64,000 bases of DNA from Escherichia phage phiEC1: the sequence record KY608965.1, one strand, 5' to 3'. Of the stretch, positions 30,995 to 54,150 are shown piece by piece. Position numbers and translations under genes: made by a program. Each line of letters starts with the position of its first letter. Position 1 is the first letter of the stretch. Under the pieces are notes generated by a model. It was not told where the DNA came from. It worked only from the letters and a program-made list of their open reading frames with translations, and ran no database searches.

Positions 30995-31031
30995 GATAGG
31001 TCTATAATAACATAACCATAGACCTTGTAAA
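30995..31031 (-). promoter_or_regulatory. early promoter cassette with inverted repeat (PeSL-like)
   Basis: GTTTACA-17-TATTAT with GGTCTAT/ATAGACC inverted repeat around -10. Confidence 0.5.
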
Positions 31032-31034
31032 CAA

Positions 31035-31322
31035 CTAAAAGAAACTTTTTTCGGTATTTTTTCCACTGAACCAAACAGACTTCGGGATTTTTTGTAATTT
31101 TTCAGATTTAAGTTTCTCTTCCTGTTCTTTCTTATATACACTCTTGTCGTACTGGAGCATCTCTATGGCATTCTTTTGCAAACGATCTAAGGTAATTAAG
31201 GCTTTAGTTTTTCCTTTCAAGGAAGAGTCCTGGCGAACCTCCTCGCTATATTGCATTGTAGAACTAACCATACGATGAGCATAGAGTTCGACTGCAGCTT
31301 TAATTTTTTGCATAAAATCCAT
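31035..31322 (-). CDS. hypothetical protein
   Basis: 95-aa ORF. Confidence 0.45.
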   Translation of the reverse strand: MDFMQKIKAAVELYAHRMVSSTMQYSEEVRQDSSLKGKTKALITLDRLQKNAIEMLQYDKSVYKKEQEEKLKSEKLQKIPKSVWFSGKNTEKSFF

Positions 31323-31460
31323 AACATATCCTCTTTGATTTGTACATCATTATTTTTAAATATTTCTATGCCCTCAGTAGGTTCCTGGTGTCCTTCTTTG
31401 AGGTAAGCCATATGATTATTCATCTTTATGGCTTTTGTTACCTCAGAACTTCCTATAAGC

Positions 31461-32441
31461 TTATTTCAGTAAAGTTACTTCGGAGATTTCCTCCCAACCA
31501 TCTTTATCAGTTGAAATAAAATCTGCTACATAAAGAGCCGTACGTAATGATACATTGCGAAGACGAGATACGTTAGCCTTCATCCAGGACAATGCTTTGT
31601 ACGTTTCAGCATCAGTCAGACCACGTTTCTGCATCATGTCAGTAGATAATATTACGTCTTCAACTCGAACCATAATCTCTTCATTAGAGTGTACTCCAAG
31701 GTCGAGATACACTGAACGAGATACTAAAGCTTGAAGGTGTGGGGCAAGTTTCGAACCACGTTCTAACTCTTTATCGATATCAACGTTTGTAATGAAAACG
31801 ATAGTACCTTCAAACTCAAATTCTTTATCGATACCCTTATCATCAAGATAAGATGATGCAGTGCTCCAGCAAACTTTGCGTTTATCACCGGTATCTAATG
31901 CTGCTTTAAGAAGGTTCAAGATGTCCATATCCGAGAATACGTCAACGTCGTCGATTAAGAGAACGCTGTCTGCATCACGGTTGAGCCAAAGTTGTTCGTA
32001 AAGACCTATACCAGAGATTTTACCATTAATGCTTTTGTATTTGATGAAACCATTATCATTAGCATTACTAAGTGCTTTATCCAGAGAATACGTCTTACCA
32101 ATACCAGCTGCACCTGAAATAATGAGTGAACGAATTTTGCCATCGATAATGCCATTCGTCATCATGTTCATTACTTTAAAGCGTTTGTTGATACGAGTTT
32201 TCATATCTTCAGTGCTTTCAACAACTGCAACTGGTGATGTCTCAACTCCTTCCATTACGATGTCTGATTTGAAGACCCATACTCCACGTTCAGAACCATC
32301 AATCATAACGAAAATTTTACCATCACCTAAGTGGGAACATTCAGGATTAAGCTTTGCCGGGAACCATGTCTTTGTGGCAACATAAGAACCAGAGATTTCG
32401 TTATTACGATAGATACCTTTTTTGATTTGAACGTTGAACAT
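31461..32441 (-). CDS. P-loop ATPase
   Basis: Walker A IISGAAGIGKTYS, Walker B VLLIDDVD; start at MFNVQIKKG with SD GAGGAG. Confidence 0.65.
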   Translation of the reverse strand: MFNVQIKKGIYRNNEISGSYVATKTWFPAKLNPECSHLGDGKIFVMIDGSERGVWVFKSDIVMEGVETSPVAVVESTEDMKTRINKRFKVMNMMTNGIIDGKIRSLIISGAAGIGKTYSLDKALSNANDNGFIKYKSINGKISGIGLYEQLWLNRDADSVLLIDDVDVFSDMDILNLLKAALDTGDKRKVCWSTASSYLDDKGIDKEFEFEGTIVFITNVDIDKELERGSKLAPHLQALVSRSVYLDLGVHSNEEIMVRVEDVILSTDMMQKRGLTDAETYKALSWMKANVSRLRNVSLRTALYVADFISTDKDGWEEISEVTLLK

Positions 32442-32460
32442 TTTATTCTCCTCTTGTTTT

Positions 32461-32497
32461 GATAGGTCTATAATAACATATCCTAAAAGCATGTACA
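32461..32497 (-). promoter_or_regulatory. early promoter cassette (PeSL-like)
   Basis: GTGTACA-17-ATTATAGACCTATC. Confidence 0.45.
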
Positions 32498-32514
32498 CTA
32501 CTTTTTAAAAATAT

Positions 32515-32544
32515 TTTGACCCCCTAAAGGGACCCGAAGGTCCC
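32515..32544 (-). terminator. putative terminator hairpin
   Basis: GGGACC-UUCG-GGUCCC 5 nt after stop of 32550-32816; weak U tract. Confidence 0.5.
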
Positions 32545-32549
32545 CACAT

Positions 32550-32816
32550 TTACTTATCGCACTTAGCAACATAATTAGGCATATCACAGAATACGGAGCG
32601 TGTAACTACTCGACCCTTTGACCATGCTTCAGTTGCTTGTCCGGCTGTGCTATTAATATAGCTTGATTTAATGTTCTCAATACCCTGAGAATGTGATGCA
32701 TTTACCGAACCGTTGGAAGGTGCAGAAGACTGGTTACCACCAGCTCCTGTACCTATGGTAGCACCAACAGAGAATGCCATCATTACTGCGAATAAACCAA
32801 TTGCTAATTTTTTCAT
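32550..32816 (-). CDS. small secreted protein (signal peptide)
   Basis: MKKLAIGLFAVMMAFSVGA... then Gly/Ser-rich. Confidence 0.55.
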   Translation of the reverse strand: MKKLAIGLFAVMMAFSVGATIGTGAGGNQSSAPSNGSVNASHSQGIENIKSSYINSTAGQATEAWSKGRVVTRSVFCDMPNYVAKCDK

Positions 32817-32843
32817 ATTTACCTCAAGTTAAGGGTTATTTAT

Positions 32844-34312: not shown

Positions 34313-34843
34313 TTATTTCAAAGTTGGGATAATAGAATCGAGATAAGCTTTAAGAGCAACTGCTTCATCTTTGTCTAATGTAACGATATGTTGACGAAGG
34401 TCATCAATTTGGCGAATAACTACAACATCGCCATCTTCATAAGAAGGATTAACGCCTAGGACTGTTGTATAGTCAGGGCGGTCCTGATTTGTAATAAAAG
34501 CATTACGGCATTTAGCCCATTGAAGTTTGGCCTTTTTGGCTGTTTCAGATTCAATGAATTCTTTCACCTTAGTGACGAATGTTTTCCAATTATTAATAGA
34601 AAAACATTCGTCTTCAGTTTCGATATTAACCCCACTATAAAGTCCGTGATAAAAACGAACTTGAAGGTCTTCATTAATGTTAATTACAGATGCATGGCCT
34701 GGTGGATTGAGTTTCAAAATCTTGTCCAGTTCCATAGGAAGAATAGTAGCAGCATCATCTTCTTGTGTCAGAACATACACATAACCACGTTTTTCGATAC
34801 ATAAATCACCAAACAACTCGGTTGTTTCAATTACAGTTTTCAT
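34313..34843 (-). CDS. hypothetical protein
   Basis: 176 aa from ATG at 34843 (track start is TTG). Confidence 0.55.
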   Translation of the reverse strand: MKTVIETTELFGDLCIEKRGYVYVLTQEDDAATILPMELDKILKLNPPGHASVININEDLQVRFYHGLYSGVNIETEDECFSINNWKTFVTKVKEFIESETAKKAKLQWAKCRNAFITNQDRPDYTTVLGVNPSYEDGDVVVIRQIDDLRQHIVTLDKDEAVALKAYLDSIIPTLK

Positions 34844-34844
34844 A

Positions 34845-35023
34845 TTATTCACCAATTAAAGTTTCAACAAAATTCACCAAATCATTCAGACAAGCATCAA
34901 CCTGATTTTCATAAAAGTCTTCGTTATCATTTACTGCATGATAAGCTACATCATTCAAATCTGAATCGGCTTCACGTAAGTCACTGATAAGGTCCATCAA
35001 TTTATTAGCTTGTTCACGGGTCA
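34845..35023 (-). CDS. hypothetical acidic small protein (58 aa), not in ORF track
   Basis: MTREQANKLMDLISDLREADSDLNDV...; stop abuts next start. Confidence 0.3.
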
Positions 35024-35150
35024 TTTTACCATACTCGTTTCAATAAGATTCACTATGCCGTTTACCATGTTATAAGTAAACATCGGATAATTGTATTGTA
35101 CTACAACATAAGCGATAAGCAAAAGTTTCATTTTGTTCTCCGTTCGTTTT

Positions 35151-35177
35151 GATAGGACTACTATAACATAGTCCTAC
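35151..35177 (-). repeat. palindromic early-promoter element GATAGGACTACTATAACATAGTCCTA(T/C), copy 1
   Basis: Inverted repeat centred on -10 TATAGT; GTAAAC (-35) at 35183-35188 on + strand. Confidence 0.55.
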
Positions 35178-35188
35178 CAAGATGTAAA

Positions 35189-35425
35189 CTACCGATTGTG
35201 TTTTAAATGTTGATAAAGTTCTTCAACTTGTTTAGGGTCCAAAACAATTAAGTCATTTTCTTGGCGAAGATAAATCCATCCCTTATCCCCAGGGCCATTT
35301 TTACAAAACATCACCGTCGTCATATCATCATCTTCAGCGCTTTCAGGTAAAAGTTCAAGTACACCGTCTTCAGATTTTCCAGTATAATCGTAAAGCATAA
35401 TGTCCTCACATAATCTCGTTAACAT
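35189..35425 (-). CDS. hypothetical protein
   Basis: 78-aa ORF. Confidence 0.45.
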   Translation of the reverse strand: MLTRLCEDIMLYDYTGKSEDGVLELLPESAEDDDMTTVMFCKNGPGDKGWIYLRQENDLIVLDPKQVEELYQHLKHNR

Positions 35426-35585: not shown

Positions 35586-35652
35586 AACGTTCTCCTCTAG
35601 TAAGTAAGGACTACTATAACACAACCTGAGGAAAAGTAAACTGCTAAATGCC

Positions 35653-35680
35653 AAAAAGCCCCAACCATAAGGAAGGGGCT
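35653..35680 (-). terminator. rho-independent terminator
   Basis: GCCCC...GGGGC hairpin followed by U5; same architecture as 51445. Confidence 0.6.
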
Positions 35681-36831: not shown

Positions 36832-37017
36832 TTATTCGGTAATTCGTTCTAGATAATCATCTAATGCCCTTTGAGCATCTTCCAGTTCTTGTGTTGCGAG
36901 CTGTTTTGCCAGTTTAGACGAGAAATACGATGAATGTTCCCATTCATAAGCTTGTTCAGCCAAACGTATTTCATTAGACAAATAAATTATCTCTTCTTTC
37001 TGTTGACGAGTAATCAT
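36832..37017 (-). CDS. hypothetical protein
   Basis: 61-aa ORF. Confidence 0.4.
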   Translation of the reverse strand: MITRQQKEEIIYLSNEIRLAEQAYEWEHSSYFSSKLAKQLATQELEDAQRALDDYLERITE

Positions 37018-37196: not shown

Positions 37197-37224
37197 TTAG
37201 CACCTGTAAGAATTTTTGTTTGAC

Positions 37225-37437
37225 TCATAACCATGTCACCTTTAAGCAATATTCTTCTACATGTTGTTTACGACCTTTCTTATCAATAAAGGTATATTCA
37301 ACGAATGTTCCGATGTAGTCTTTATCTACGTCATGTGGACTATTAATTGGACATTTAGTACGACAAATGCGTTCCCATTGACGAATAATTACTGCTTTAT
37401 TTTTAGGATCAAACGGATGTGGGTAATGTACTTTCAT
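37225..37437 (-). CDS. hypothetical protein
   Basis: Start MKVHYPHP overlapping macro-gene stop (ATGA). Confidence 0.4.
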   Translation of the reverse strand: MKVHYPHPFDPKNKAVIIRQWERICRTKCPINSPHDVDKDYIGTFVEYTFIDKKGRKQHVEEYCLKVTWL

Positions 37438-37931
37438 AGCAATGGTTCCCAATCAACAATCACAATTTCTAGTTTAGTGGAATACGTATCTAAAATTTCT
37501 TCGATGACATCCCAGTTTCCACCACCAATACCTGCACCAATTCTTGGCATATAAATTACAGGCTTTGTTATCTTATTCTTTCCGAATTTATTTAATTCTA
37601 TTATACAATTCATTAAAGCAGAGTACTCAAAATTAGGTCCCGGCTCAAACTGTGTATAAAGATTAAAGCAATAAGCTTTATGGGTCTTAAAATATTTTTC
37701 ATAAACCGAATAAGTCCCGAGTTTAGACTCGTCTCCGAATTCGGTTTGAAGTTTATCGGCTTCCAGAATTTTTGGATAAGCCTTTGCTAATTGACCTGCT
37801 ACACCAGCGCCCATTGTATGAAAACAATTACACCCATGAGCAATATTATTACCTTTAGAAAACAGGGCGACAATATCGCCCTTGATATAGTTTTTAATCA
37901 CTTGCTGCAAGTCCTCTAGTATAAGAGTCAA
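37434..37931 (-). CDS. macro-domain protein (ADP-ribose binding/processing)
   Basis: NIAHGCNCFHTMGAGVAGQ and PRIGAGIGGGNW macrodomain signatures. Confidence 0.7.
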   Translation of the reverse strand: MTLILEDLQQVIKNYIKGDIVALFSKGNNIAHGCNCFHTMGAGVAGQLAKAYPKILEADKLQTEFGDESKLGTYSVYEKYFKTHKAYCFNLYTQFEPGPNFEYSALMNCIIELNKFGKNKITKPVIYMPRIGAGIGGGNWDVIEEILDTYSTKLEIVIVDWEPLL

Positions 37932-38788: not shown

Positions 38789-39247
38789 CTAGATTTTAAT
38801 CACTGCTTTAGAAGCTTTTCCTGGTAGTCGTTTACTGTTAATAATAGCCATTCTACATTGAAGAGTCTTCATTTTGAATGCTGGATTTTCGCGACAAACT
38901 GTAAGTCCTAACCAAAGATTTCCGTCAGTTATTTCTAAACGGCCTGGGCGATATTCGACACCTTCGACAAAATCTTCATCAACATCTGGACGTGCCGGCA
39001 TTGATAAAAATTCTGCAACTTCTTTAACATGATTTTTTACTTTATGAAATAATTCAAAAACGTAATTCTCATCTATTTCTCTCTGGATGGCACGATCTAA
39101 GAGATGTTGAGAATACTTGATATGAAAGCCTGGTAGCCCAAGAGACTTTGCAGCATCTTTTATACCGGCATTTATTTTGCGGAACTCCGTTTCAAAGATT
39201 CGACGAAGTTTATTACGGCGGATAAAAACGTCTGAATTGATAGTCAT
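38789..39247 (-). CDS. regB: endoribonuclease RegB
   Basis: MTINSDVFIRRNKLRRIFETEFRKIN... matches T4 RegB. Confidence 0.9.
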   Translation of the reverse strand: MTINSDVFIRRNKLRRIFETEFRKINAGIKDAAKSLGLPGFHIKYSQHLLDRAIQREIDENYVFELFHKVKNHVKEVAEFLSMPARPDVDEDFVEGVEYRPGRLEITDGNLWLGLTVCRENPAFKMKTLQCRMAIINSKRLPGKASKAVIKI

Positions 39248-39270
39248 TTTGATTTCTCCTCTAGCTGACA

Positions 39271-39304
39271 GGTCTATAGTAACACAACTAGAGGAGAAGT
39301 AAAC
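39271..39304 (-). promoter_or_regulatory. early promoter cassette
   Basis: GTTTACTTCTCCTCTAGTTGTGTTACTATAGACC. Confidence 0.4.
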
Positions 39305-41217: not shown

Positions 41218-41360
41218 TTAGTTTCTCTTAAGGTTGGGCCATTCCATGGCGCATGAATTGTCCGTTTCTGTATTTACCCATTACCGCACTTGGGCTCGAC
41301 CTTATTACAGGTTGGCGGGAATCCCTCATAGAATAATGAGGTCCAGGTTGTTCCCATTTT

Positions 41361-41392
41361 ATTTAAATGTAAATAGGCCTATACTTAGGCCT
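41361..41392 (-). terminator. putative terminator
   Basis: AGGCCU-n6-AGGCCU hairpin after ipIII-like stop, U-rich tail. Confidence 0.45.
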
Positions 41393-41394
41393 TA

Positions 41395-42340: not shown

Positions 42341-42374
42341 AGTAATTATACCATATTAATACTTAAGCGTAAAC
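42341..42374 (-). promoter_or_regulatory. early promoter (TTTACG-17-TATAAT)
   Basis: Transcribed strand TTTACGCTTAAGTATTAATATGGTATAAT upstream of ipII-like gene. Confidence 0.5.
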
Positions 42375-42500: not shown

Positions 42501-42914
42501 TTAGTAAATTGATTTACCATAGTATTTGTACCAAGTCGGACGTTGAGCAATTTTTTCATCTAAGCGTGCTTGACTTATCGCAATGGACGCTTCGGACGGG
42601 ACATAATTATTACGAAATTCGGCAGGAATGTCGGAAATATCCTGGACAGTCGTGTCCTTGATTTTGAAACCACGTTTCAAGCATTCAGCTATTAGCTCGA
42701 TTTGACGTAAACGTAAAAATTCGAGTTTGTCATAAAAGAATGTTACGTGACCTGTGCCTAAGATAAATGTTGGAGAGATTTTAAAATCCTTTACACGTTT
42801 ACCATTTTGAACATGTTTACGGACTGCACCAAATACGCGTGGTAATTCACGATACTCAGCCATAAGATGTTGGTCGGTCAGTTCAGAAACAAGTGTTAAA
42901 TTGATACGAGTCAT
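42501..42914 (-). CDS. denV: endonuclease V (pyrimidine-dimer DNA glycosylase) DenV
   Basis: [29 protein letters not shown]... matches T4 DenV; SD GGAGG. Confidence 0.92.
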
Positions 42915-42940
42915 AATTTCCTCCAAGTAGTTGATAGATG

Positions 42941-42971
42941 TATAGTATCAAAACCCTTGGAGGAAGTAAAC
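42941..42971 (-). promoter_or_regulatory. early promoter cassette
   Basis: GTTTACTTCCTCCAAGGGTTTTGATACTATACATCTATC. Confidence 0.4.
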
Positions 42972-45632: not shown

Positions 45633-45633
45633 A

Positions 45634-45939
45634 TTATTTTCCTCGACATTCTTTAATGAAATTTTCTAGATTGGTAGATTCAATAGCTTTTTTACGAGCT
45701 TCTGCGTGTTCTTCTTCAGACAATTTACATTTATAATTAACCCAGACGTTATGGTCAAAACTAGTCGTGGCATATAATAACAAAGCCCCGACGAATAATA
45801 AAAATGGTGATAAGAATACAAAACCAGGAACACCATCCATATCGTAAGCCTTTTGTAATACTGCAACAGAAAGAGCTGCGTAAAAAGGTGATGCAAATAT
45901 TGTTAAAAGACCAATTCGGTTGGTTTCGCCTAATTTCAT
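45634..45939 (-). CDS. membrane protein, FI(K/T)ECR C-terminal family
   Basis: TM hairpin then ...LENFIKECRGK. Confidence 0.5.
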   Translation of the reverse strand: MKLGETNRIGLLTIFASPFYAALSVAVLQKAYDMDGVPGFVFLSPFLLFVGALLLYATTSFDHNVWVNYKCKLSEEEHAEARKKAIESTNLENFIKECRGK

Positions 45940-45959
45940 AATATTCTCCTCATGTTTTA

Positions 45960-45985
45960 ATAGGACTACTATAACATAGTCCTAT
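45960..45985 (-). repeat. palindromic early-promoter element, copy 2
   Basis: ATAGGACTACTATAACATAGTCCTAT; GTAAAC at 45992-45997. Confidence 0.55.
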
Positions 45986-46009
45986 AATTGGGTAAACAGT
46001 TTTGTGAAG

Positions 46010-46966
46010 TTATTTGAAAGGTTTCACCATATGAAAATTTTCTTTAAACCGTTTGATGTAATCATTTTTGCCGAGCTTATGATACATAGCCACTACTTCA
46101 TAATAGTTCTCGTATGCGTACTCACGGAACCATCCTGACGTGATTGAAGTACAGACTTTTTCTAATGCCATCATGAAACTGGCTTCAGGGTTAATTTCAA
46201 AGTTATTAGGAATCTGAGAACGTTCTAATGCTAGTACACATGATTCTTCGTATACACCGGCCAATTTGACCATTTCCGGTAATGATTCGAACTTCTCGCG
46301 TGAGGTCATGACTTCAGAACCATCTTTCATGTAAAATGTATACGCTGGACGGTCTGTTAGTGCAATGGCTTCGTGAATAGTATCATGGTCATACGTATAG
46401 ATGTCATCTTTAAAGAATGCGCTTTTAGAAGTGTCAAGAACTGGGTGAGCATAGTTCAAGGTTTCTTTCTGGCGTTTCAGCATAATTTCAGTAAGTTCAT
46501 CGTTCAGTGTAACACCTTTACCACGAAGATACTGAATATGGTTCATAGTCTTTAAAAAGAATGGATTATTTTTCTTGAAACGATGGGACATCTTAATTGC
46601 AAGGCACATCTCAGGAGTTGCCCAGTAAAACCCGTTCAAACGGTCTTTAGTCAAATTTTTCTTGGCGTATTTTAAAAGGTCATAAGAAGACGTGAAATCT
46701 TCAGGAGTGAGTTCACCGACTAATTCACGGACATTAGTGATTGCCGGAACAATATATGCTTCAAAATGAGTTTCGCGTCCGTTATGAAAACATTTGAAAA
46801 CCTGGACGTCAGGGTTATCTTGGTGAACATATACACCCATCATTTGATTTTTGAATGCATTCCAAGAACCTTGGTCCGCAATAAAGTCCCAATCGCTATT
46901 TTTGATAGCGCTAGAATCAATAAGGCCGTGATAGTGAAGTGCACGAGAACCAATAACTAACATCAT
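46010..46966 (-). CDS. hypothetical protein
   Basis: 318-aa ORF. Confidence 0.6.
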   Translation of the reverse strand: MMLVIGSRALHYHGLIDSSAIKNSDWDFIADQGSWNAFKNQMMGVYVHQDNPDVQVFKCFHNGRETHFEAYIVPAITNVRELVGELTPEDFTSSYDLLKYAKKNLTKDRLNGFYWATPEMCLAIKMSHRFKKNNPFFLKTMNHIQYLRGKGVTLNDELTEIMLKRQKETLNYAHPVLDTSKSAFFKDDIYTYDHDTIHEAIALTDRPAYTFYMKDGSEVMTSREKFESLPEMVKLAGVYEESCVLALERSQIPNNFEINPEASFMMALEKVCTSITSGWFREYAYENYYEVVAMYHKLGKNDYIKRFKENFHMVKPFK

Positions 46967-46991
46967 AATATTTTCCTCGAATTTAGATTAC

Positions 46992-47243
46992 TTAAATTTC
47001 ACGACATGCGATATTATATTCATCCCAGAGGTCGTCATGTGAAGCCTCTACCAAAGGAACGATTGTACCGTTTATGTCTTCATTATAAGGACAAATTGTA
47101 CAGTGCGCATCTTCGAATCGGATGCCTTTGTGTTCAGATTTTTTATAACGCATATCGAATATCTTTGCAAACTTTTCACGACTAATAGTTTTAGCAACTA
47201 CTTCGGTTCCGATACTTTCGTAATAAATCATTGTAGACTCCAT
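46992..47243 (-). CDS. hypothetical protein
   Basis: 83 aa; Cys/His pairs. Confidence 0.5.
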   Translation of the reverse strand: MESTMIYYESIGTEVVAKTISREKFAKIFDMRYKKSEHKGIRFEDAHCTICPYNEDINGTIVPLVEASHDDLWDEYNIACREI

Positions 47244-47250
47244 TTAATTT

Positions 47251-47277
47251 GATAGGACTACTATAACATAGCCCTAT
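47251..47277 (-). repeat. palindromic early-promoter element, copy 3 (one mismatch)
   Basis: GATAGGACTACTATAACATAGCCCTATC; GTAAAC at 47285-47290. Confidence 0.5.
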
Positions 47278-47293
47278 CTTGTTGTAAACTGTT

Positions 47294-47491
47294 TTAGCAA
47301 GAATAACTAGATGATACCCAGCCTTGAACAGTAATACTATTATTTGATAACGAGATTGCGTCCTGGAGATTCAGACCTGCGTTATCTTCAATCCACAATG
47401 TAACTTCTTCACGTTCTTCGGTTGCAATTTGGAACAGGTTTTCCAGGGCAGCTACTGCCGTACGTACAGCACAATCTAATTCACGAGACAT
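47294..47491 (-). CDS. hypothetical protein
   Basis: 65-aa ORF. Confidence 0.4.
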   Translation of the reverse strand: MSRELDCAVRTAVAALENLFQIATEEREEVTLWIEDNAGLNLQDAISLSNNSITVQGWVSSSYSC

Positions 47492-47500
47492 ATTATTTCC

Positions 47501-47773
47501 TTAACAAGTGTGAGAAGATGCAACCCAACCGCCATCTTCAAGGCTCAGGTTGTAGTCGTATTGGTAAACGTCGGCCCATTCAGCATAGCCGTTTTTTGTA
47601 CAACGTTCAAGATCGGCTTTAAGCTGTCCGGGTGAATGATAGGTTCCACCCATACCATAAGCTGGATACAAGTCGAATGTTGTGTTTTGTTTATCAGCAA
47701 TTTCTTTGGCAGCCTCAATAGCTGCATAGATTTTTGCTACAGCTTCAGCCAGCTCGGTTTGTTCTTTAGACAT
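47501..47773 (-). CDS. hypothetical protein, tandem paralog A
   Basis: 90 aa; C-terminus GGWVASSHTC. Confidence 0.5.
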   Translation of the reverse strand: MSKEQTELAEAVAKIYAAIEAAKEIADKQNTTFDLYPAYGMGGTYHSPGQLKADLERCTKNGYAEWADVYQYDYNLSLEDGGWVASSHTC

Positions 47774-47782
47774 AATGATTCC

Positions 47783-48088
47783 TTAGCACAACGCAGAAGA
47801 CGAAACCCAAGCACCTTCAGTAATAACGTAACCATTACCTTCACGCTTAACATCGCCACCATTATTTTCAATTTCATTTTTCATCCACTGAGATACGATT
47901 TCACCCTTAGGATAATAAGTACGACCGCTACCATAATCACCTACAGAAAATGATACGGCATATTGGTCTGCGATCTTTGTTGCTTCTTCTTCGATACGTT
48001 CAGCTTGATTTAGAAGTTTATAAATTGCATCTGAAGCGGATTTGGCATCATTAAACTCTGGTACTTTAATTTCAATAATCTTACTCAT
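47783..48088 (-). CDS. hypothetical protein, tandem paralog B
   Basis: 101 aa; C-terminus GAWVSSSALC; shared MSK...A.A..KI N-terminus. Confidence 0.5.
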   Translation of the reverse strand: MSKIIEIKVPEFNDAKSASDAIYKLLNQAERIEEEATKIADQYAVSFSVGDYGSGRTYYPKGEIVSQWMKNEIENNGGDVKREGNGYVITEGAWVSSSALC

Positions 48089-48444
48089 TTTCTACATTCC
48101 TTAATAAAGTTTTCGATTGTTTCATTTTCACGTCTAGCTAGGAGTTCATTATAACTAATCATTTGAGAAGCGTAAACCTTTTTATTTTTCTTGTTATGGT
48201 TTATAAAATCGTAGTAAAAATAGACTACAGTACAAAAGGATGCTATTGATGCAAAGGCTTGGGTATACCGTAAGTCCTGCCATTGGTCTGTGAATCCACC
48301 AGTGTTACCTATAAATCCTAACACAACGCCGTCAATAAGAAATCCAACTAATCCAAAGGCAAATCCCATGCCGGCGCTCATGATAAAAATTAAAATATTC
48401 TCACCAAGAGAAGGCCATACGGTTAAGAGTTGAGGCTTTTGCAT
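48085..48444 (-). CDS. membrane protein, FI(K/T)ECR C-terminal family
   Basis: TM segments then ...IENFIKECRK. Confidence 0.5.
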   Translation of the reverse strand: MQKPQLLTVWPSLGENILIFIMSAGMGFAFGLVGFLIDGVVLGFIGNTGGFTDQWQDLRYTQAFASIASFCTVVYFYYDFINHNKKNKKVYASQMISYNELLARRENETIENFIKECRK

Positions 48445-48848
48445 CTTATTTCCTTAACGAATTCCATAGCTTCTTCATATTCATACTTTTTAACAGCTTC
48501 ATCATACTGAGCTTGGGCTTTTGCGCACTGAACTTTCCACTCGCGAACTCGAGCTCTGTGATGACGGCCTTGGTGCCAATATCCTGCCCAATTAATAGGC
48601 ATTAATAAAAACGGTACAATAAGTGGTGCGACGAACATTAATGAAAACGCTGCATCAGACGATATAACTTTATTGGAATCTAAAATAGCTCCTATAATCA
48701 TAAAGATTAAAAATGCTAAAGCTAAAATAGGGCCAAATAGTACTTCGTTTGGGATTAATTTACGTTTGTATTCGTATGCCCAGGGCTTAATTGGCATGTA
48801 CAGGGTTGGCTTTGACATATTCTCTACATTCCATAATAAATTGCTCAA
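48423..48848 (-). CDS. membrane protein (related C-terminal EFVKEIRCK)
   Basis: 141 aa, 2 TM segments. Confidence 0.5.
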   Translation of the reverse strand: MSNLLWNVENMSKPTLYMPIKPWAYEYKRKLIPNEVLFGPILALAFLIFMIIGAILDSNKVISSDAAFSLMFVAPLIVPFLLMPINWAGYWHQGRHHRARVREWKVQCAKAQAQYDEAVKKYEYEEAMEFVKEIRCKSLNS

Positions 48849-49389
48849 GGATTAAATTGTTAGTGAAATTAGGACTAACAACCATAGTTTCATAAAGCGC
48901 ATCAATAGCACTTAAAGCATCAACTCTTTTAAGCAAAGGCTCGCCTTCATACATAGTTTCAGAATCGACGATTAACGTAAAGTAATATTTTTTATTATCG
49001 ACTAGAACTTCAGTATCGATATAAAACATATTAGACCTCAGAAGCTTATCTCTAAAACCATAATAATCTTCAGAGCGTTCGCTGATATATTCCCATTCAG
49101 TGTTTAAACAACAAACAGACCATGTAGGAGCAACAAAATCGGTGAATCTAATATCATGGTCTGCAACTAGTTTAGCAATAGCTCCGATATCATGAATCAT
49201 AATACCTGGGGCTAATAAAGATTTTCTGCTATGGCCAGCCGTTTTCTCAGTGGTCTCATAAGAAGCTGACCAGTACCATTTACGTCCAGTTGCAACATAT
49301 CGTAATGAATCAACTAAAGACGTAGGTGGATTTACCTTATTTCGGAACTCTTCGAACATTGAGTCAATATCATTATTTTGGTTTCGCAT
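48787..49389 (-). CDS. hypothetical protein
   Basis: Start MRNQNNDIDSM with SD AAGGAG. Confidence 0.5.
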   Translation of the reverse strand: MRNQNNDIDSMFEEFRNKVNPPTSLVDSLRYVATGRKWYWSASYETTEKTAGHSRKSLLAPGIMIHDIGAIAKLVADHDIRFTDFVAPTWSVCCLNTEWEYISERSEDYYGFRDKLLRSNMFYIDTEVLVDNKKYYFTLIVDSETMYEGEPLLKRVDALSAIDALYETMVVSPNFTNNLILEQFIMECREYVKANPVHAN

Positions 49390-49404
49390 GTTAACTCCTT
49401 TATT

Positions 49405-49430
49405 ATCCAAAAGGAGGACAAAAGTCCTCC
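49405..49430 (-). terminator. rho-independent terminator
   Basis: GGAGGAC-UUUU-GUCCUCC hairpin followed by UUUUGG. Confidence 0.6.
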
Positions 49431-49438
49431 GTATTATT

Positions 49439-50047
49439 TTATTTCAAAGAGTTAATATATTCTTGTACATCAGCAGAAGTGGTTTCGACACCAGCTGGAG
49501 TGCCATTGAACGTTTCAACACGAGTCAGAGTGTCTTCGATATCAACCTTAGTCAGTGCAGCGATTTCAATTACATCATCGGCCGTAGAGATACCAAGGGC
49601 ATTAGCTGCTCGAGTTTCACGAATGTATTCGAGTTTGATTGCCAGATTCTGACGAGCATCGTCAAGTTCAACAACCTTACGAGCAATTTCAATTCGCATA
49701 GCGGCATACCCGTCAGCTTTTGTATTAAGTTGTTCGGCCGTTCGACGATACAGAAGACCAAGCTTAGCATGCATGGTAACATCTTGTCCTTCAGCCAGGA
49801 GCTTACGAATTTCACGTTCCTTAGAAGCGGCTTGCTTGTTCTTTTCATTAACAAGTTCGCGAATACGTTTTTCTTCATTAATAGATTTAACAGAAGCCGT
49901 TTTTAGTTCTTTGATTTGGGTAATCAACTTATCTGCAGCTGCGTTATACTGTTCTTCGACAGTCAGATTTTTAGCCATAGCAGTACTCAGTTTAGTGCGG
50001 ATGAATTCAACAAGTTTCTTCAGTGTGTTCATATTATTACCTTTCAA
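49439..50047 (-). CDS. coiled-coil protein
   Basis: 202 aa, long helical heptad-like sequence. Confidence 0.55.
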
Positions 50048-50102
50048 TTGGTGGTTTATTATCCAATGAGAGCATTATACTCTGCTCTCAAGAGTTTGTA
50101 AA

Positions 50103-50330
50103 TTATTTTTTAATCAAATTGACATAAAACTCGGCGTCTTCCGGGTGCATGCCTTCACAGTATTCTTCAACCATGAACTTCTTAACGGCTTCATAAGGAC
50201 CACTCAGATTAAGCTCAGTTGTCCAGAACTTGGAATCTTGGACTGAATCGATACGAACTTCAGGGTGACGGTTGCGAATAACTTCTTCGGTGTATTCATA
50301 ATCAACAACATCAATACTAACTGTAGCCAT
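50103..50330 (-). CDS. hypothetical acidic protein
   Basis: 75-aa ORF. Confidence 0.45.
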   Translation of the reverse strand: MATVSIDVVDYEYTEEVIRNRHPEVRIDSVQDSKFWTTELNLSGPYEAVKKFMVEEYCEGMHPEDAEFYVNLIKK

Positions 50331-50350
50331 TTTGTTTCTCCTCTTGATTT

Positions 50351-50389
50351 GATGTGATTACTATAACATAAACTTACTTAGATGTAAAT
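50351..50389 (-). promoter_or_regulatory. early promoter cassette
   Basis: ATTTACATC...TTATAGTAATC. Confidence 0.4.
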
Positions 50390-50542
50390 TATTTCAACGT
50401 CACCTTTAGCGGCTTTATAACCTTCAGCCCAAGATACAACAGAGTTTTTATCTGAGGATTCAAATTCAGGCATTGGACTTTCACCAATATTCACACAATA
50501 TGTTTCTTCATTTTCATCGAACCAAATAATTAAAGTAGTCAT
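50378..50542 (-). CDS. hypothetical small protein (54 aa), not in ORF track
   Basis: MTTLIIWFDENEETYCVNIGESPMPEFESSDKNSVVSWAEGYKAAKGDVEIIYI. Confidence 0.3.
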   Translation of the reverse strand: MTTLIIWFDENEETYCVNIGESPMPEFESSDKNSVVSWAEGYKAAKGDVEIIYI

Positions 50543-50560
50543 TTTGTTTACTCCTCTGTA

Positions 50561-50593
50561 GTTGATAAGTTTATAGTATCACCGTCCTTGGTG
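50561..50593 (-). promoter_or_regulatory. early promoter cassette
   Basis: ATGTACAAGCACCAAGGACGGTGATACTATAAACTTATC. Confidence 0.4.
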
Positions 50594-50610
50594 CTTGTAC
50601 ATCATTATTT

Positions 50611-50943
50611 TTAATTTTTCCAACTTAACAACTTGTAGTGTCCTTCATTAACACGTGGTTTATCCCAAGAAATACTAATATATGATTCACTGTCAATAGA
50701 AGTCGCCGGGTTTTTCTCTACCGTAAGACCTTCACTTTCCAGCCATTCAATAGTATTTGCGCATAAATCAGAAGAACACCTCATTGGAAACCGGCAAGAT
50801 TTTTCACCTTTAGCTGCAGTGTTATACATCTTTTCTAAAATACGCTTTTGCACGTTTTTAAAAATAGTTTCAGCAGATTCTTCAGATTTTTTATTCAGTT
50901 CGGTATAAAGACTCATAACATTCTTCTCATTAATAGTGCTCAT
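50611..50943 (-). CDS. hypothetical protein
   Basis: 110-aa ORF. Confidence 0.5.
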   Translation of the reverse strand: MSTINEKNVMSLYTELNKKSEESAETIFKNVQKRILEKMYNTAAKGEKSCRFPMRCSSDLCANTIEWLESEGLTVEKNPATSIDSESYISISWDKPRVNEGHYKLLSWKN

Positions 50944-50973
50944 AATATCTCAATCATAAGCCCGTGTAAACAA

Positions 50974-51249
50974 TTATTTCATATTATTGAAATAATCTTC
51001 CGCATCAAAATCGTTATCATGGTAAACTTTGGTAGACGATTTGGCGTAGCCTTCAGCAGAGAACATATTAATCACAACTTTAATTGTATACCACTGTCCA
51101 TCTTCATTACCCATTACTGCATAGGTTTCATACACCGGGTGTTCAGGTCCAATAACTTTAATATCATTCACTGTACGTCCGAAATCTTCTGGAACGCATT
51201 TCATAAAGAAGTTGAACAGTTCACCGTAATTATCCATTTCATTCTCCAA
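50974..51249 (-). CDS. hypothetical protein
   Basis: 91-aa ORF. Confidence 0.5.
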   Translation of the reverse strand: MENEMDNYGELFNFFMKCVPEDFGRTVNDIKVIGPEHPVYETYAVMGNEDGQWYTIKVVINMFSAEGYAKSSTKVYHDNDFDAEDYFNNMK

Positions 51250-51270
51250 GTTTTTTCTGTATCGGTAGTT

Positions 51271-51309
51271 GATAGTTGTATAGTACCACGGAAGAACAGG
51301 GATGTAAAC
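51271..51309 (-). promoter_or_regulatory. early promoter cassette
   Basis: GTTTACA-17-TACTATACAACTATC. Confidence 0.45.
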
Positions 51310-51444
51310 AGTTTTGTGAAAAAATTTTTAAAAAGTTTTGTGGAATTCTAGGGCAGGGAGAGGAAATTAAAAAGTAGGATAATATATTATAAAGGGTATA
51401 AACTAAATGATGTGCCTAGAGAGGCCCTGAAAGGCCTAGATACC

Positions 51445-51472
51445 AAAAAGCCCCAACCTTTCGGAAGGGGCT
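51445..51472 (-). terminator. rho-independent terminator
   Basis: AGCCCC-UUCCGAAAGGUU-GGGGCU followed by U5. Confidence 0.7.
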
Positions 51473-51480
51473 ATACCTTG

Positions 51481-51770
51481 TCGGGGTTCCACCTGCAAGG
51501 CAAGTGTTTGTACGAAACGCCGGGATTCGAACCCGGTTATTGAGTAGTTGACGCTACTCAATATTTTTAAAAGGCCATATCTCGACCATATCCGAACATT
51601 CCGTCAAAAACGCTACTCGGCTTACGGCAAAGATATTTCCTCGAATCGATAATTCGGTGCGCCGTTTCTGCTGTGATGTAAGGGGATATTAACGAATCAT
51701 AAAGATTTATTAAGACCAGTCCTTAATCAGGGAACATCAGTCCGACGACTTGCCGGTAGCGACCCGGCTT
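51481..51770 (-). other. non-coding region with tRNA-like 3' module (possible stable small RNA or tRNA remnant)
   Basis: No ORF; canonical T-arm CCGGG-TTCGAAT-CCCGG near 51520-51536 preceded by 9-bp hairpin, but no acceptor-stem partner. Confidence 0.3.
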
Positions 51771-51771
51771 C

Positions 51772-52116
51772 TTATTTTGACATATCATCAATTTGTTCTC
51801 TACGTCTACGCCATAGATTAATTACTTCATCAACACATTCGGCGTTTGATATATGACGGCAATAATATAATGATTCGCGTTTCTGGAACCGATGTTGCAA
51901 TGGGATTTCGTTTAAAAGGTCTTTACGGTCAAAGTATTCAAAACTAGTTAACCCAGAACGGTTTTTAAGGAACTTCCAATGACCAAATTCATTTTGAACA
52001 TAGACGTAATCGGCATGCTGATACAGCGAATTAATTAACCTATTGGAAATAACTGTTTCACGTTCGTTAAAATAAAACGTTAAATCATGAACTACCAGAT
52101 AAACATTGCCTTTCAT
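51772..52116 (-). CDS. hypothetical protein
   Basis: Start MKGNVYLVVHD with SD GAGGAAAA; track ORF N-terminus would overlap tRNA. Confidence 0.5.
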   Translation of the reverse strand: MKGNVYLVVHDLTFYFNERETVISNRLINSLYQHADYVYVQNEFGHWKFLKNRSGLTSFEYFDRKDLLNEIPLQHRFQKRESLYYCRHISNAECVDEVINLWRRRREQIDDMSK

Positions 52117-52134
52117 ATTTTCCTCACTTAAAGT

Positions 52135-52211
<77 letters not shown>

Positions 52212-52217
52212 AATATA

Positions 52218-52291
52218 TGACCCAGACCAGATTCGAACTGGTAACCTTTCCCTTATGAGGGGACTGCTGCTAACCATTGAGCTACAGGGCC
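52218..52291 (-). tRNA. tRNA with CAT anticodon (Met or lysidine-type Ile)
   Basis: Hand-folded: T arm ACCAG-TTCGAAT-CTGGT, anticodon loop CTCATAA, D-loop with GG; one acceptor-stem mismatch; 74 nt. Confidence 0.65.
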
Positions 52292-52370
52292 TAAATAACT
52301 TTCTATTATGAAAGGCACTTTAGAGCACCTTTGGTAATAGAGGGTATGAATTAATAATAACACATAATTC

Positions 52371-52886
52371 TTAAAGCAAATCAACCATTTTAACGGTCGG
52401 CAAAACGATTTCTTCTTCAATATAAGCAAATTCGACACGTTCAACTACACGCAAGAAATCGTAATCATAGTATTCAGAAGCATAGCCAAGAATATCAATA
52501 AGACCTTGAGATATCTCATCGCCTTTCACAAAGAACAGGTCGAATACACGTGATTCATCTTCTTCAGATTTATTACCGAGGTCGACTTCGATACCAAAGA
52601 CCTTTTTAATGAATTCCGGATAAAGCTGGTCTGAGAACAGTCCTTCAACCAAGTATTCATAGATTAAAAGCGAGCAATCACTGAATGGTGTATTACCACA
52701 ATAACGTTCGGCTTTGGTGCTAGAATGACGGCTCTTAAATTTCTTCAAGAGATATTTAAACTGTTGGAGCTCATGCTCTTCCACTTCAAACAATGTTTTG
52801 GTTTTATAGTTGTCACCATCATTTTCATAGGTAGTGACATCAATTACGTAACCCTTAGGAATTGTACTGCCTAAACAAATATTCAT
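52371..52886 (-). CDS. hypothetical protein
   Basis: 171-aa ORF. Confidence 0.55.
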   Translation of the reverse strand: MNICLGSTIPKGYVIDVTTYENDGDNYKTKTLFEVEEHELQQFKYLLKKFKSRHSSTKAERYCGNTPFSDCSLLIYEYLVEGLFSDQLYPEFIKKVFGIEVDLGNKSEEDESRVFDLFFVKGDEISQGLIDILGYASEYYDYDFLRVVERVEFAYIEEEIVLPTVKMVDLL

Positions 52887-52890
52887 TTAC

Positions 52891-53181
52891 TCACCGTACC
52901 ATATTAATGTAATTATATTCAATGCAACGTAATTTCAAAGGATTCTTGAAAATATCATATTCAAGAGGACCTTTTTCTGTTTCAATAAAGAAATCAAAGT
53001 TCACACTATTAAATTTGCGGTCTTCCCAAAGTAATTTAACCTGTGAAGATGAACGGTCGATGTAAACCTTTTCAACTTCAAAGTGGGTCAAAATACCATA
53101 GTAATCGACTAGTGCTTTAGCTGCAGCTCGGTCGCTTTCATATCCATTCTCAACGGATTTTACCTTAGCATAAAGAATCAT
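52891..53181 (-). CDS. hypothetical protein
   Basis: 96-aa ORF. Confidence 0.5.
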   Translation of the reverse strand: MILYAKVKSVENGYESDRAAAKALVDYYGILTHFEVEKVYIDRSSSQVKLLWEDRKFNSVNFDFFIETEKGPLEYDIFKNPLKLRCIEYNYINMVR

Positions 53182-53558
53182 GAATGTTCCACCATTTCAA
53201 AGGTATGAGCATCAACAATATGATACCAGTCAAAATTTTCTTCTGCGTTTTTATAAATTTCGCGAAGAGCCTCAACAGTTTTTCCTGTAGCAACAAGGTC
53301 GTCAATACCACCAAGAGGATAACAGTCATAACCAGCAAACAGAAGGAAATTAATAGTTTCTGTAGGTTCTGGATACAGAACTCCGTTATCGTCTACCACT
53401 TCAAAGAAAGTGTAAGAAGGAGTACAAGTTTTAATCCAGGCCCATGCTTGAGCTGCTGAATCAAACGGATTACGGAATAAACGACAATCCGGGTCTTTAG
53501 AAGGATTTGCTTCAAAATCAGCATATACATGATATTTCATTTTACTCACCTTTTGCAA
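53178..53558 (-). CDS. hypothetical protein
   Basis: 126-aa ORF. Confidence 0.5.
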   Translation of the reverse strand: MQKVSKMKYHVYADFEANPSKDPDCRLFRNPFDSAAQAWAWIKTCTPSYTFFEVVDDNGVLYPEPTETINFLLFAGYDCYPLGGIDDLVATGKTVEALREIYKNAEENFDWYHIVDAHTFEMVEHS

Positions 53559-53748
53559 TTTTATCCATAACGATAGCGATTAAGCCGATTAGAAATGCTA
53601 CTACCAATGAGATAGAATTTTCTGTTGTTGTCAGTAGTCCACAAATGAATCCTACAAACATCGAAAAACTAAAAGCCATTGAAGCAATTACTACAGCAAC
53701 ATTACGAATCAGTTCAGCGCGTTTCATTTTATTTCTCCATTTACTCAT
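53542..53748 (-). CDS. small membrane protein
   Basis: 68 aa, two hydrophobic helices. Confidence 0.45.
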   Translation of the reverse strand: MSKWRNKMKRAELIRNVAVVIASMAFSFSMFVGFICGLLTTTENSISLVVAFLIGLIAIVMDKIAKGE

Positions 53749-53755
53749 TTGATTT

Positions 53756-53783
53756 GATAGGACTACTATAACATAGTCCTATC
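53756..53783 (-). repeat. palindromic early-promoter element, copy 4
   Basis: GATAGGACTACTATAACATAGTCCTATC; GTAAAC at 53789-53794. Confidence 0.55.
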
Positions 53784-53797
53784 AGCATGTAAACTAC

Positions 53798-54085
53798 TTA
53801 TAGAAGAGTTTTTGCAATAATTTTAAGCTGAGCTACAGAAATATGCTTAGCTTTAAACAGTGCAGTCTCTTCAGCCGGAGAGATAACAATAGTAGCGCCA
53901 TCTTTCTTAGCAGACCATCCATCCCCTAAGTAAACAGTACCTTTTACTTCTTCACCATCAACCAGACTAATCATTGGTTTACCCTCACGTCCTTTATTTG
54001 TTTTAATAACTTCAGAAGTAAGGGATGCTTCGGTCAGAGTAGAAACGTTAGCAACAGGTGATATAAATTCTTTATAGGTTTTCAT
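53798..54085 (-). CDS. internal protein I-like (capsid-targeted), ipI locus
   Basis: MKTYKEFISPVANV... CTS-like leader; position next to 57B as T4 ipI. Confidence 0.65.
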   Translation of the reverse strand: MKTYKEFISPVANVSTLTEASLTSEVIKTNKGREGKPMISLVDGEEVKGTVYLGDGWSAKKDGATIVISPAEETALFKAKHISVAQLKIIAKTLL

Positions 54086-54110
54086 TTTATTTCCTTGAGG
54101 CTGTTTATTT

Positions 54111-54150
54111 GATAGGATGATAGTAACACACCATCATCCTTATGTAAACT
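54111..54150 (-). promoter_or_regulatory. early promoter cassette with inverted repeat
   Basis: GTTTACATAAGGATGATGGTGTGTTACTATCATCCTATC. Confidence 0.45.

Follow-up and report, generated by a model that had tools for sequence, protein, structure and literature searches.

The early promoters of Escherichia phage phiEC1 carry embedded stem-loops. They were studied in a stretch of 64,000 nucleotides (nt) of the phage genome (sequence record KY608965.1; this whole stretch is the window in what follows), mainly between positions 30995 and 54150, where four near-identical palindromes lie across the -10 element. These elements are probably sigma70 early promoters with an embedded RNA hairpin, the T-even form of the PeSL elements of phages RB49 and phi1, and the hairpin would serve as an end-of-cistron element on RNA that reads through from the gene upstream. 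The argument is built on the promoters, the geometry of the stem-loops, the covariation of their arms, the strand bias of their mismatches and a link to tight gene spacing. The feature is real and statistically robust, and a role of the palindrome as an operator is unlikely; the function of the hairpins that span the -10 element is putative.

Early promoters of the nrdC.8-57B region

Positions 45000-54000 of the window share 94.9% identity with coliphage RB69 (AY303349, 66949-76651); for the other Mosigvirus phages among the best matches the figure is 94-97%. By collinearity with RB69, the span 30995-54150 corresponds to nrdC.8 – nrdC.10 – tk – vs – regB – denV – e – tRNA – ipI – 57B, which in T-even phages is the classical hyperplastic early region. 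Its genes all lie on the minus strand, and many of its open reading frames (ORFs), including homologues of RB69ORFxxx genes, have no assigned function. An Rfam scan of 19000-56000 returned two tRNAs and nothing else.

The motif GTTTAC-N17/18-TAYWRT has 16 matches in the window, all on the minus strand, against 0.26 ± 0.46 expected; 13 of them fall within the span, and the late-gene part of the window has none. Three sites with one-base variants of the -35 box, at 32498 (GTGTAC) and at 50103 and 50389 (ATTTAC), bring the span to 16 promoter-like sites. Every one has a Shine-Dalgarno (SD) sequence, an ATG and an ORF downstream, 27-42 nt past the -10 element, and the matches are co-oriented with the genes. 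The initial annotation had counted at least 12 minus-strand sites, which holds for the promoter motif, and had written the motif as GTTTAC-N17-TATWRT, a form that matches only twice. The true spacing is 18 nt from GTTTAC, equal to TTTACA plus 17, with TACTAT also needed as a -10 sequence and, at most sites, with a TGn extended -10. TTTACA-N17-TATAGT with the TGn extension is the early-promoter consensus of T4 (PMC2988021, PMC1524935), and the sequence identifies the motifs as sigma70-type early promoters of an RB69-like T-even phage.

A typical copy, read on the minus strand, is GTTTAC-atgct-GATAGGACTA-tgt-TATAGT-AGTCCTATC-aaatc...GGAG...ATG. The 24 nt upstream of the -35 box are 73% A+T, against a background of 63%. 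The box (A)GTCCTATC/GACCTATC after the -10 element, assigned earlier to at least 12 sites, is exact at only six (31032, 32498, 35189, 45997, 47289 and 53794), with near matches at 35641 (GTCCTTAC), 39304 (GACCTGTC) and 54149 (ATCCTATC); a shorter CTATC(A) around +1 is common to about 13 sites. The complete cassette occupies about 70 nt and runs from a stop codon through an A/T-rich, UP-like stretch, GTTTAC, a spacer of 17-18 nt, TGn and the -10 element to CCTATCA, the SD and the ATG.

Four promoters contain the near-identical 27-bp palindrome reported before, at 35151-35177, 45959-45985, 47251-47277 and 53756-53782, with 0-1 mismatch each. No such palindrome arose in 100 shuffles, and the claim that promoter motif and palindrome are both commoner than chance is borne out. 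Matches to the promoter motif on the plus strand within the palindromes (e.g. at 53739) were rejected as mirror images of the dyad with no gene downstream.

Hairpins across the -10 element and over the Shine-Dalgarno sequence

The palindrome can fold into a stem-loop of 9-11 Watson-Crick pairs, or of 10-13 pairs as RNA with G·U, in which 4 of 10 pairs are G-C. Its 5' arm occupies positions 6-15 of the spacer between the -35 and -10 elements. The 8-nt centre, TGTTATAG, is non-symmetric and consists of TGn and five -10 bases, and the 3' arm begins with the last T of the -10 element and ends at +3 (-7 to +3). As RNA, the hairpins that span the -10 element at seven sites have predicted energies of -12.7 to -18 kcal/mol, with z between -3.7 and -6.0 (Table 1). 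The four palindrome copies each have a different 5-nt sequence between the -35 box and the arm, so that identity ends at the arm edges; the palindromes are therefore not simply recent duplicates.

The likely start of transcription lies within the 3' arm. In T4, the RefSeq promoter Pe133295 takes its name from the seventh base after the -10 element, an A within the 3' arm of a GGTAGAG/CTCTACC hairpin. By analogy, transcription here would start at the A of CCTATC at 53758, 47253, 45961 and 35153. With the predicted start inside the 3' arm, the whole hairpin would exist only in read-through RNA: the promoter's own transcript would begin AUCAAA... and lack it, and RNA arriving from the upstream gene would carry all of it. 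The palindromic hairpins are followed by A-rich sequence and no U-tract, and the palindrome was rejected as an intrinsic terminator on finding no T-run on either strand.

Hairpins of the same geometry occur in the window with other sequences, at 54149 (AGGATGAT/ATCATCCT), 31032 (AGGTCTAT/ATAGACCT), 50103 (TGAGAGCA/TGCTCTCA) and 20060 (GAGAGA/TCTCTC). The last is a paralogue of the 50103 promoter and differs from it in a compensatory way. The 5' arms seen in the window are GATAGGACTA, GGTCTAT, GGATGAT and GAGAGC. RB69 has nine two-armed copies of the GATAGGACTA family, among them the fully compensated GATAGGGCTA/TAGCCCTATC at 145286; this GGGC/GCCC variant recurs in two IMG/VR contigs (L092, L100). 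T4 uses GACAAGACTA/TAGTCTTGTC, TGACAAGATTA/TAATCTTGTCA and TGATGAGGTA/TACCTCATCA, and has a 14-bp stem at its ipIII promoter. T4-like contigs from IMG/VR add TAGGGTC/GACCCTA, GGTAGGAAG/CTTCCTACC, GTGTAGGAG/CTCCTACAC and others.

Complementarity was measured by a swap test, in which the best stem between a spacer and its own downstream sequence (-10 to ATG) was compared with the stems obtained when spacers were exchanged among promoters. For 20 promoters of the window the score was 364, against 270 ± 15 after swapping (0/2000 reached it); z was 9.0 for 48 promoters of the whole RB69 genome and 11.3 for 37 T4 promoters, and the result for RB69 and T4 stands with Watson-Crick pairs alone. Over the three sets z thus ranges from 6 to 11. 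Covariation was scored over 55 GTTTAC-N18-TATAGT promoters with SD and ATG, chosen irrespective of their arms. In a fixed 10-bp register, 63.6% of cells were paired versus 51.7% when shuffled (0/500), and covariation was 0.373 versus 0.208 (0/500), falling to 0.13-0.19 when the partner columns were slid. A generic listing of inverted repeats proved too noisy and was replaced by counting perfect stems of 8 bp or more; of the 58 in the window, 8 lie in promoter-leader segments, which make up 2% of the window, an enrichment of about 7-fold.

The mismatches that remain are biased by strand. When all mismatches were penalised alike during stem finding, the internal mismatches of stems in RB69, T4 and the IMG/VR contigs comprised 18 G·T/T·G and 5 A·C/C·A on the sense strand (binomial p = 0.011). 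A G·U pair on the sense strand is a C·A pair on the other, and for this reason the asymmetry is a sign that the sense strand folds. This is supportive, not conclusive, sequence evidence that the folded molecule is the sense strand, as RNA or non-template DNA, and not a duplex site or a cruciform.

A second class of hairpin (class B) occurs at the promoters of regB (39304), denV (42971) and the mobD.2a homologue (35641). Here the opening 8-14 nt of the spacer serve as the 5' arm, and the SD region serves as the 3' arm; at the mobD.2a homologue the arms TTTTCCUC/GAGGAGAA include one U·G pair. The helices predicted to cover the SD measure 11-14 bp at 39304 and 10 bp at 42971. The regB 5' arm directly follows the -35 box and is predicted to be missing from the promoter's own transcript. 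The predicted probability that the SD-AUG region is unpaired is 0.26 in read-through RNA versus 0.53 in the promoter's own transcript for regB, and 0.32 versus 0.64 for denV. The helices recur in orthologues: those at 61362 and 7429 in RB69 have 13 bp, and that of T4 regB has 15 bp, two of them wobble pairs; the RB69 orthologue of the mobD.2a promoter has a perfect arm, TTCTCCTC. According to these folds, read-through RNA would be translated poorly, the promoter's own transcript alone would be open, and class B would confine translation to the early transcript made from the promoter itself.

Several structures outside these classes were also seen. Upstream of the gene 55 homologue, 19303-19337 (minus strand) holds an 8-bp perfect stem, ATAGGTCT/AGACCTAT, with TATAAT at the 3' end of a 19-nt loop. 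It has TGCTTTA upstream, which is MotA-box-like and too far from the -10 sequence, and no GTTTAC; the hairpin-across-(-10) design appears there at a site that does not resemble an early promoter, adjoining the RB69ORF072c indel. Distant T4-like contigs of IMG/VR (L010, 2458; L074, 392; L126, 8498) show a third geometry, in which the discriminator GTCYTCC (-6 to +1) pairs with the SD GGAGGAC, and the start site again cuts off part of the 5' arm. Five IMG/VR contigs outside the T4-like filter (L022, L037, L049, L054 and L098) have a conserved AAATATGTTATAGTATGTTT at GTTTAC-N18-TATAGT and may belong to a further phage group that has a dyad across the -10 element. Among the longest inverted repeats of the region is that at 34574-34612, within the coding part of the mobD.1 homologue (ORF 34313-34855); its 12 bp of perfect pairing (GACGAATGTTTT/AAAACATTCGTC) lengthen to arms of 19 nt that are 89% complementary.

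Gene spacing, cassette exchange and other readings

The distance between the upstream stop codon and the -35 box is -1 to 12 nt for the four palindromic promoters and -1 to 13 nt for most sites. Because the stop codon adjoins the -35 box, the palindromic promoters leave no room for a terminator. Hairpin strength follows this spacing. Of 70 promoters scored in RB69 and T4, 65 entered the comparison (44 tight, 21 loose), and the median energy of the spanning hairpin was -8.2 kcal/mol where the stop codon lies at most 15 nt from the -35 box versus -2.2 kcal/mol where the gap is at least 30 nt (one-sided Mann-Whitney p = 0.009).

The roomy sites at 35641, 32498 and 25989 have a GC-rich hairpin upstream and no spanning hairpin, and a T-run follows at 35641 and 32498. 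The terminator hairpins concerned are 32518-32534, with its T-run, for site 32498, and about 35657-35680, GC-rich and followed by TTTTT, for site 35641. The terminator-promoter-gene units described by the initial annotation are found at this minority of sites (32498, 35641); elsewhere the description fails, and the four palindromic promoters have neither the room nor a U-tract. Hairpins that resemble intrinsic terminators are only the separate ones, at 32518-32534, about 35657-35680, 41375-41392 and 49413-49430. The last two are terminator-like on both strands: 49413-49430 (GGAGGAC-TTTT-GTCCTCC) is intergenic in the e.5/e.6 region, and 41375-41392 (AGGCCTA-AGTA-TAGGCCT) is intergenic in the vs.8/ORF123c region with ATTTAC directly after it.

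These observations suggest that the upstream cistron calls for a hairpin at its end, and where the intergenic space holds only a promoter, its spacer and discriminator would be the sequence left free. We infer that the hairpin is written into the promoter, with the -10 element as its loop, because the upstream gene ends at the -35 box. On read-through RNA such a hairpin could attenuate or pause transcription, or insulate neighbouring translation-initiation regions. It could also shield the upstream message from 3' exonucleases, for example after RegB or RNase E has cut at the next SD.

Exchange mediated by the cassettes probably occurs in this region, to judge from the alignment with RB69. About 10 indels or replacements separate the window from RB69 in the early region; two are bounded by promoter cassettes and about eight are not. 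In one of the two, RB69ORF102c is absent and the ORF102c cassette drives nrdC.10, joined at GGAGAA(T/C)AAAATG. In the other, at the ipI locus, the promoter and leader of ORF156c are joined to the ipI body within AAAATGAAAACCTAT, which removes ORF156c and a fifth palindromic promoter (RB69 76798). Both crossovers lie in microhomology of the SD, the ATG and the first codons, outside the palindrome, and a synthetic deletion junction between the palindromic promoters 47289 and 45997 was found in 0 of 153 related phage records. Two of about ten indels fit the proposal that the cassettes drive gene shuffling; as the site of crossing over, the palindrome finds no support in these junctions.

Other differences from RB69 are the segments 32553-32839, 36836-37015, 37201-37443, 41316-41947 and 15628-16453, present here and absent or replaced in RB69, and the genes RB69ORF072c, 087c, 102c, 148c/149c and 156c, present in RB69 and missing from the window. 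Small ORFs in the segments absent from or replaced in RB69 include 32550-32816 (88 aa), 36832-37017 (61 aa), 37225-37452 (75 aa) and 41395-41973 (192 aa).

The palindromic cassette extends beyond the close relatives of RB69. Its 31-nt core is found at 100% identity in many T-even phages of E. coli and Shigella, with 8-9 copies per Mosigvirus genome and 1-2 copies in some other E. coli and Shigella phage records. It also occurs in Acinetobacter phages of the Twarogvirinae, another subfamily. AB-Navy1 (L128, 33347-33372) reads GTTTAC-agcatc-ATAGGACTA-tgt-TATAAT-AGTCCTAT in the same promoter context, and in Morttis (L129, 48726-48756) the cassette stands before a small ORF within the intron-interrupted DNA polymerase gene. 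A check for co-transfer of cassette and gene gave one weak similarity (32 aa, E = 7e-4), between ABNavy1_069, the gene that follows the AB-Navy1 copy, and the RB69ORF137c homologue at 47639-47734, which is not behind a palindrome in the window.

It is distinctly unlikely that the element acts at the level of DNA, as a hairpin or cruciform or as repeated homology used for recombination (a PeSL mobile cassette or mini-circle, possibly with endonuclease VII). Such a site would fit the cassettes of distant phages, including the one inside the DNA polymerase gene intron, the two cassette-bounded indels with the loss here of the extra ipI promoter of RB69, and one RB49 mini-circle crossover that was mapped to the loop of a stem-loop (Arbiol et al., 2010; PMC2839356). 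The position of both crossovers, the eight or so indels without a promoter at their borders and the missing 47289/45997 junction are against it. Homologous recombination needs no hairpin, and a cruciform should tolerate G.T and A.C equally. Injected T4-type DNA is linear, which disfavours the extrusion of cruciforms.

The palindrome had also been offered as an operator. A dimeric protein of the phage or the host would then bind it and turn a subset of the early promoters off (or on), perhaps as part of early shut-off. This is very unlikely. A dyad centred on the -10 element is in the ideal position for a repressor, the same arms occur in four copies here, in nine in RB69 and in Acinetobacter Twarogvirinae, and the mechanism of early shut-off is open (PMC2988021, PMC3014915). 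However, the same symmetric half-sites are not found at all the promoters that would be regulated: other promoters of the same genome have unrelated arms in which complementarity is kept, and compensated changes occur within the family (GGGC/GCCC) and in T4 (GACAAGACTA/TAGTCTTGTC). A protein that binds the duplex would not be expected to produce the 18 versus 5 asymmetry in favour of sense-strand G·U, the 8-nt centre lacks symmetry, and an operator does not predict that hairpin strength tracks the closeness of the stop codon.

Equally improbable is a signal intrinsic to the promoter, whereby spacer and discriminator tune the binding, melting or escape of RNA polymerase or its Alt-dependent stimulation, and complementarity is incidental or an aid to melting. 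The T4 early promoters do have extra conserved regions without an explained role (PMC2988021), CCTATCA (-3 to +4) is conserved even where it has no partner arm, and a preference for C at -3 to -1 was reported in RB69 (Nolan et al., 2006). Covariation with different arms, the SD pairing of class B and the proximity of the upstream gene are left unexplained. That the dyad has no function and is a frozen accident, its four copies having arisen recently from one promoter by duplication or gene conversion, is highly improbable: the copies are near-identical and promoter cassettes do recombine, yet their identity stops at the arm edges, independent arms of the same geometry occur in RB69, T4 and metagenomic phages, and all statistical controls were exceeded.

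Several points weigh against the preferred reading of the cassettes as promoters with an RNA hairpin for the end of the upstream cistron. Lacking a U-tract, the hairpins are not canonical terminators, and a role as attenuator or stabiliser is a guess. The start site is extrapolated from the nomenclature of T4 Pe133295, and the strand-bias test counts 23 mismatches only, from genomes that are partly related. The CCTATC of the 3' arm is conserved at promoters without a 5' arm, which indicates a promoter or start constraint as well; the RB69 orthologue of the frd.3 promoter (50389), for instance, keeps the AGTCCTATC box without the arm. The GATAGGACTA/TAGTCCTATC arms are constant at their 8-9 sites per Mosigvirus genome and even in T4-like phages of Acinetobacter. 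This conservation exceeds the need of a pure structure and may reflect the constraint on the 3' arm, recombinational spread of the cassette, or a sequence-specific partner.

A bolder form of the RNA hairpin reading is unlikely, namely that the promoter-embedded hairpins are a genome-wide isoform switch of T-even phages and that the GATAGGACTA/TAGTCCTATC subfamily is in addition recognised by a factor and linked to shut-off. The spacer at dozens of early promoters would then be made complementary either to the start region or to the SD. Read-through and proximal RNA would differ in translation, in sensitivity to RegB or RNase E or in the stability of their 3' ends, and the early-to-middle transition would have an extra, unrecognised layer.

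Pairing, either with the start region or with the SD, constrains much of the seemingly free spacer sequence, and the constraint probably acts on the sense strand. This offers a testable reason for part of the extra conservation of early promoters. It also predicts that the behaviour of a gene's message depends on the promoter from which it originates. RB69 and T4 are model phages, yet the extra positions of their early promoters and early silencing still lack an explanation (PMC2988021). For annotation, the cassettes would mark real gene starts, including those of unannotated mini-ORFs, and for engineering they could provide natural module boundaries. The promoter at 35189 stands before a 36-codon ORF with an SD (35021-35131, minus strand; MKLLLIAYVVVQYNYPMFTYNMVNG...), in a place where RB69 has an unannotated gap between tk.1 and RB69ORF107c; cassette and ORF are kept in RB69 (57675) and in an IMG/VR locus (L044).

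Table 1. Early promoters of the span, with their hairpins (positions in the window; energies and z of the hairpin as RNA).
Feature	Position	Strand	Gene or context	Parts	Energy (kcal/mol)	z
Promoter, palindrome copy 4	53751..53794	minus	upstream of tRNA.4 homologue	-35 GTTTAC 53789-53794; 5' arm 53774-53784; -10 TATAGT 53765-53770; 3' arm 53755-53765; 11-bp perfect arms; TGT and -10 in loop; predicted +1 A at 53758	-17.7	-5.9
Promoter, palindrome copy 3	47246..47289	minus	upstream of RB69ORF135c homologue	arms 47269-47278 and 47251-47260, one G.U pair (GGGC/GTCC); -10 47260-47265; predicted +1 47253	-16.0	-6.0
Promoter, palindrome copy 2	45954..45997	minus	upstream of RB69ORF133c homologue	arms 45977-45985 and 45960-45968; -10 45968-45973; predicted +1 45961	-12.7	-4.3
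Promoter, palindrome copy 1	35146..35189	minus	upstream of unannotated 36-codon ORF	arms 35169-35180 and 35149-35160, one G.U pair; -10 35160-35165; predicted +1 35153	-18.0	-5.9
Promoter, -10-spanning hairpin	54106..54149	minus	ipI-like gene	AGGATGAT/ATCATCCT, 54133-54140 and 54114-54121	-15.4	-4.6
Promoter, -10-spanning hairpin	30990..31032	minus	nrdC.8 homologue	AGGTCTAT/ATAGACCT, 31018-31025 and 30998-31005	-13.4	-3.7
Promoter (ATTTAC), hairpin	50060..50103	minus	e.6 homologue	TGAGAGCA/TGCTCTCA, 50083-50090 and 50067-50074	-13.8	-3.9
Promoter, class B	39245..39304	minus	regB	TTCTCCTCTAG 39288-39298 pairs with SD-containing CTAGAGGAGAA 39254-39264	-21.4	-5.4
Promoter, class B	42912..42971	minus	denV	TTCCTCCAAG 42956-42965 pairs with SD-covering CTTGGAGGAA 42918-42927	-19.0	-4.9
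Promoter, class B	35589..35641	minus	mobD.2a homologue	TTTTCCTC 35628-35635 pairs with GAGGAGAA 35589-35596, one U.G		
Terminator-then-promoter unit	32470..32534	minus	upstream of nrdC.10 homologue	hairpin GGTCCC..GGGGGTC and T-run (32518-32534), then GTGTAC-N17-TATTAT-AGACCTATC		
Early promoter	42345..42374	minus	upstream of RB69ORF124c-like ORF	weak spanning hairpin only		
Early promoter-like site	48148..48177	minus		59-nt leader		
Promoter (ATTTAC)	50360..50389	minus	frd.3 homologue	no hairpin		
Promoter	50942..50971	minus	RB69ORF146c homologue			
Promoter	51280..51309	minus	e.8 homologue	long upstream gap, no spanning hairpin		

Comparison with known systems

The PeSLs of RB49 and phi1 combine AT-rich sequence with an early promoter of the sigma70 type, a stem-loop and an SD/ATG (Arbiol et al., 2010; PMC2839356). 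Their stem-loop lies most often between -35 and -10 or overlaps the -10 element, its stems contain G-T pairs, and one of them cut read-through into lacZ as much as rrnB T1 did (PMC2839356). PeSL-like analogues on T4 early promoters were described at the internal-protein (IP) loci of T-even phages (Repoila et al., 1994, cited in PMC2839356). Comeau et al. (2014) reported PeSLs in T4/PST and in KVP40/nt-1 and drew the T4-type stems just upstream of the promoter (PMC4122927). Nolan et al. (2006) predicted 57 early promoters in RB69, with C at -3 to -1, and did not mention hairpins; Hinton (2010) noted the unexplained extra consensus of T4 early promoters and the open mechanism of shut-off and did not mention dyads (PMC2988021).

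The likeness to PeSLs drawn by the initial annotation was right in kind, since all the sequence-level features are present: early promoter, AT-rich stretch, stem-loop, SD/ATG and hyperplastic location. The stem-loops have predicted energies of -12.7 to -21.4 kcal/mol, exceed the swapped controls in complementarity and covary. As in RB49 and phi1, all parts are packed into about 70 nt, the stem lies over or near the -10 element and includes G-T pairs, and small ORFans adjoin. Two of about ten indels have cassettes at their borders. The differences are a T4-type GTTTAC with TGn in place of a near-perfect TTGACA, AT-richer stems in place of GGGG/CCCC, and mapped crossovers in the SD/ATG region; the cassettes here are, moreover, known from sequence alone. 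Closer still in subgroup are the T4/PST PeSLs and the T-even IP loci, which share TTTACW-N17-TAYWAT, and the ipI exchange resembles classical IP shuffling; the T4/PST stems were drawn upstream of the promoter, whereas here and in our T4 scan many straddle the -10 element and the start.

In the PeSL literature no mention of the RB69-type palindrome was found, although stems across the -10 element of T4 or RB69 may have been described before, and no global map of 5' or 3' ends of T4 or RB69 RNA that addresses these sites was found. The element is of PeSL type, in a phage group for which no explicit description was found. What the present analysis adds to the knowledge of PeSLs is a set of covariation statistics, a predicted start site inside the 3' arm, a class of early promoters with arms that pair with the SD, the bias of mismatches by strand and the connection to gene spacing.

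REP elements are intercistronic stabiliser hairpins in E. coli operons. Like them, the palindromic hairpins are stable, stand at the end of a cistron without a U-tract and could block 3' exonucleases; the analogy is one of mechanism alone, with no relation in sequence. The nearest counterpart of class B is found in the T4 genes e, soc, 49 and I-TevI, where a hairpin sequesters the SD and an internal promoter frees the ribosome-binding site (PMC3014915). In both cases the promoter lies within the hairpin, the long transcript hides the SD and the proximal transcript is without the 5' arm. The T4 promoters, however, are late (or middle) ones and delay translation, whereas the class B promoters of phiEC1 are early.

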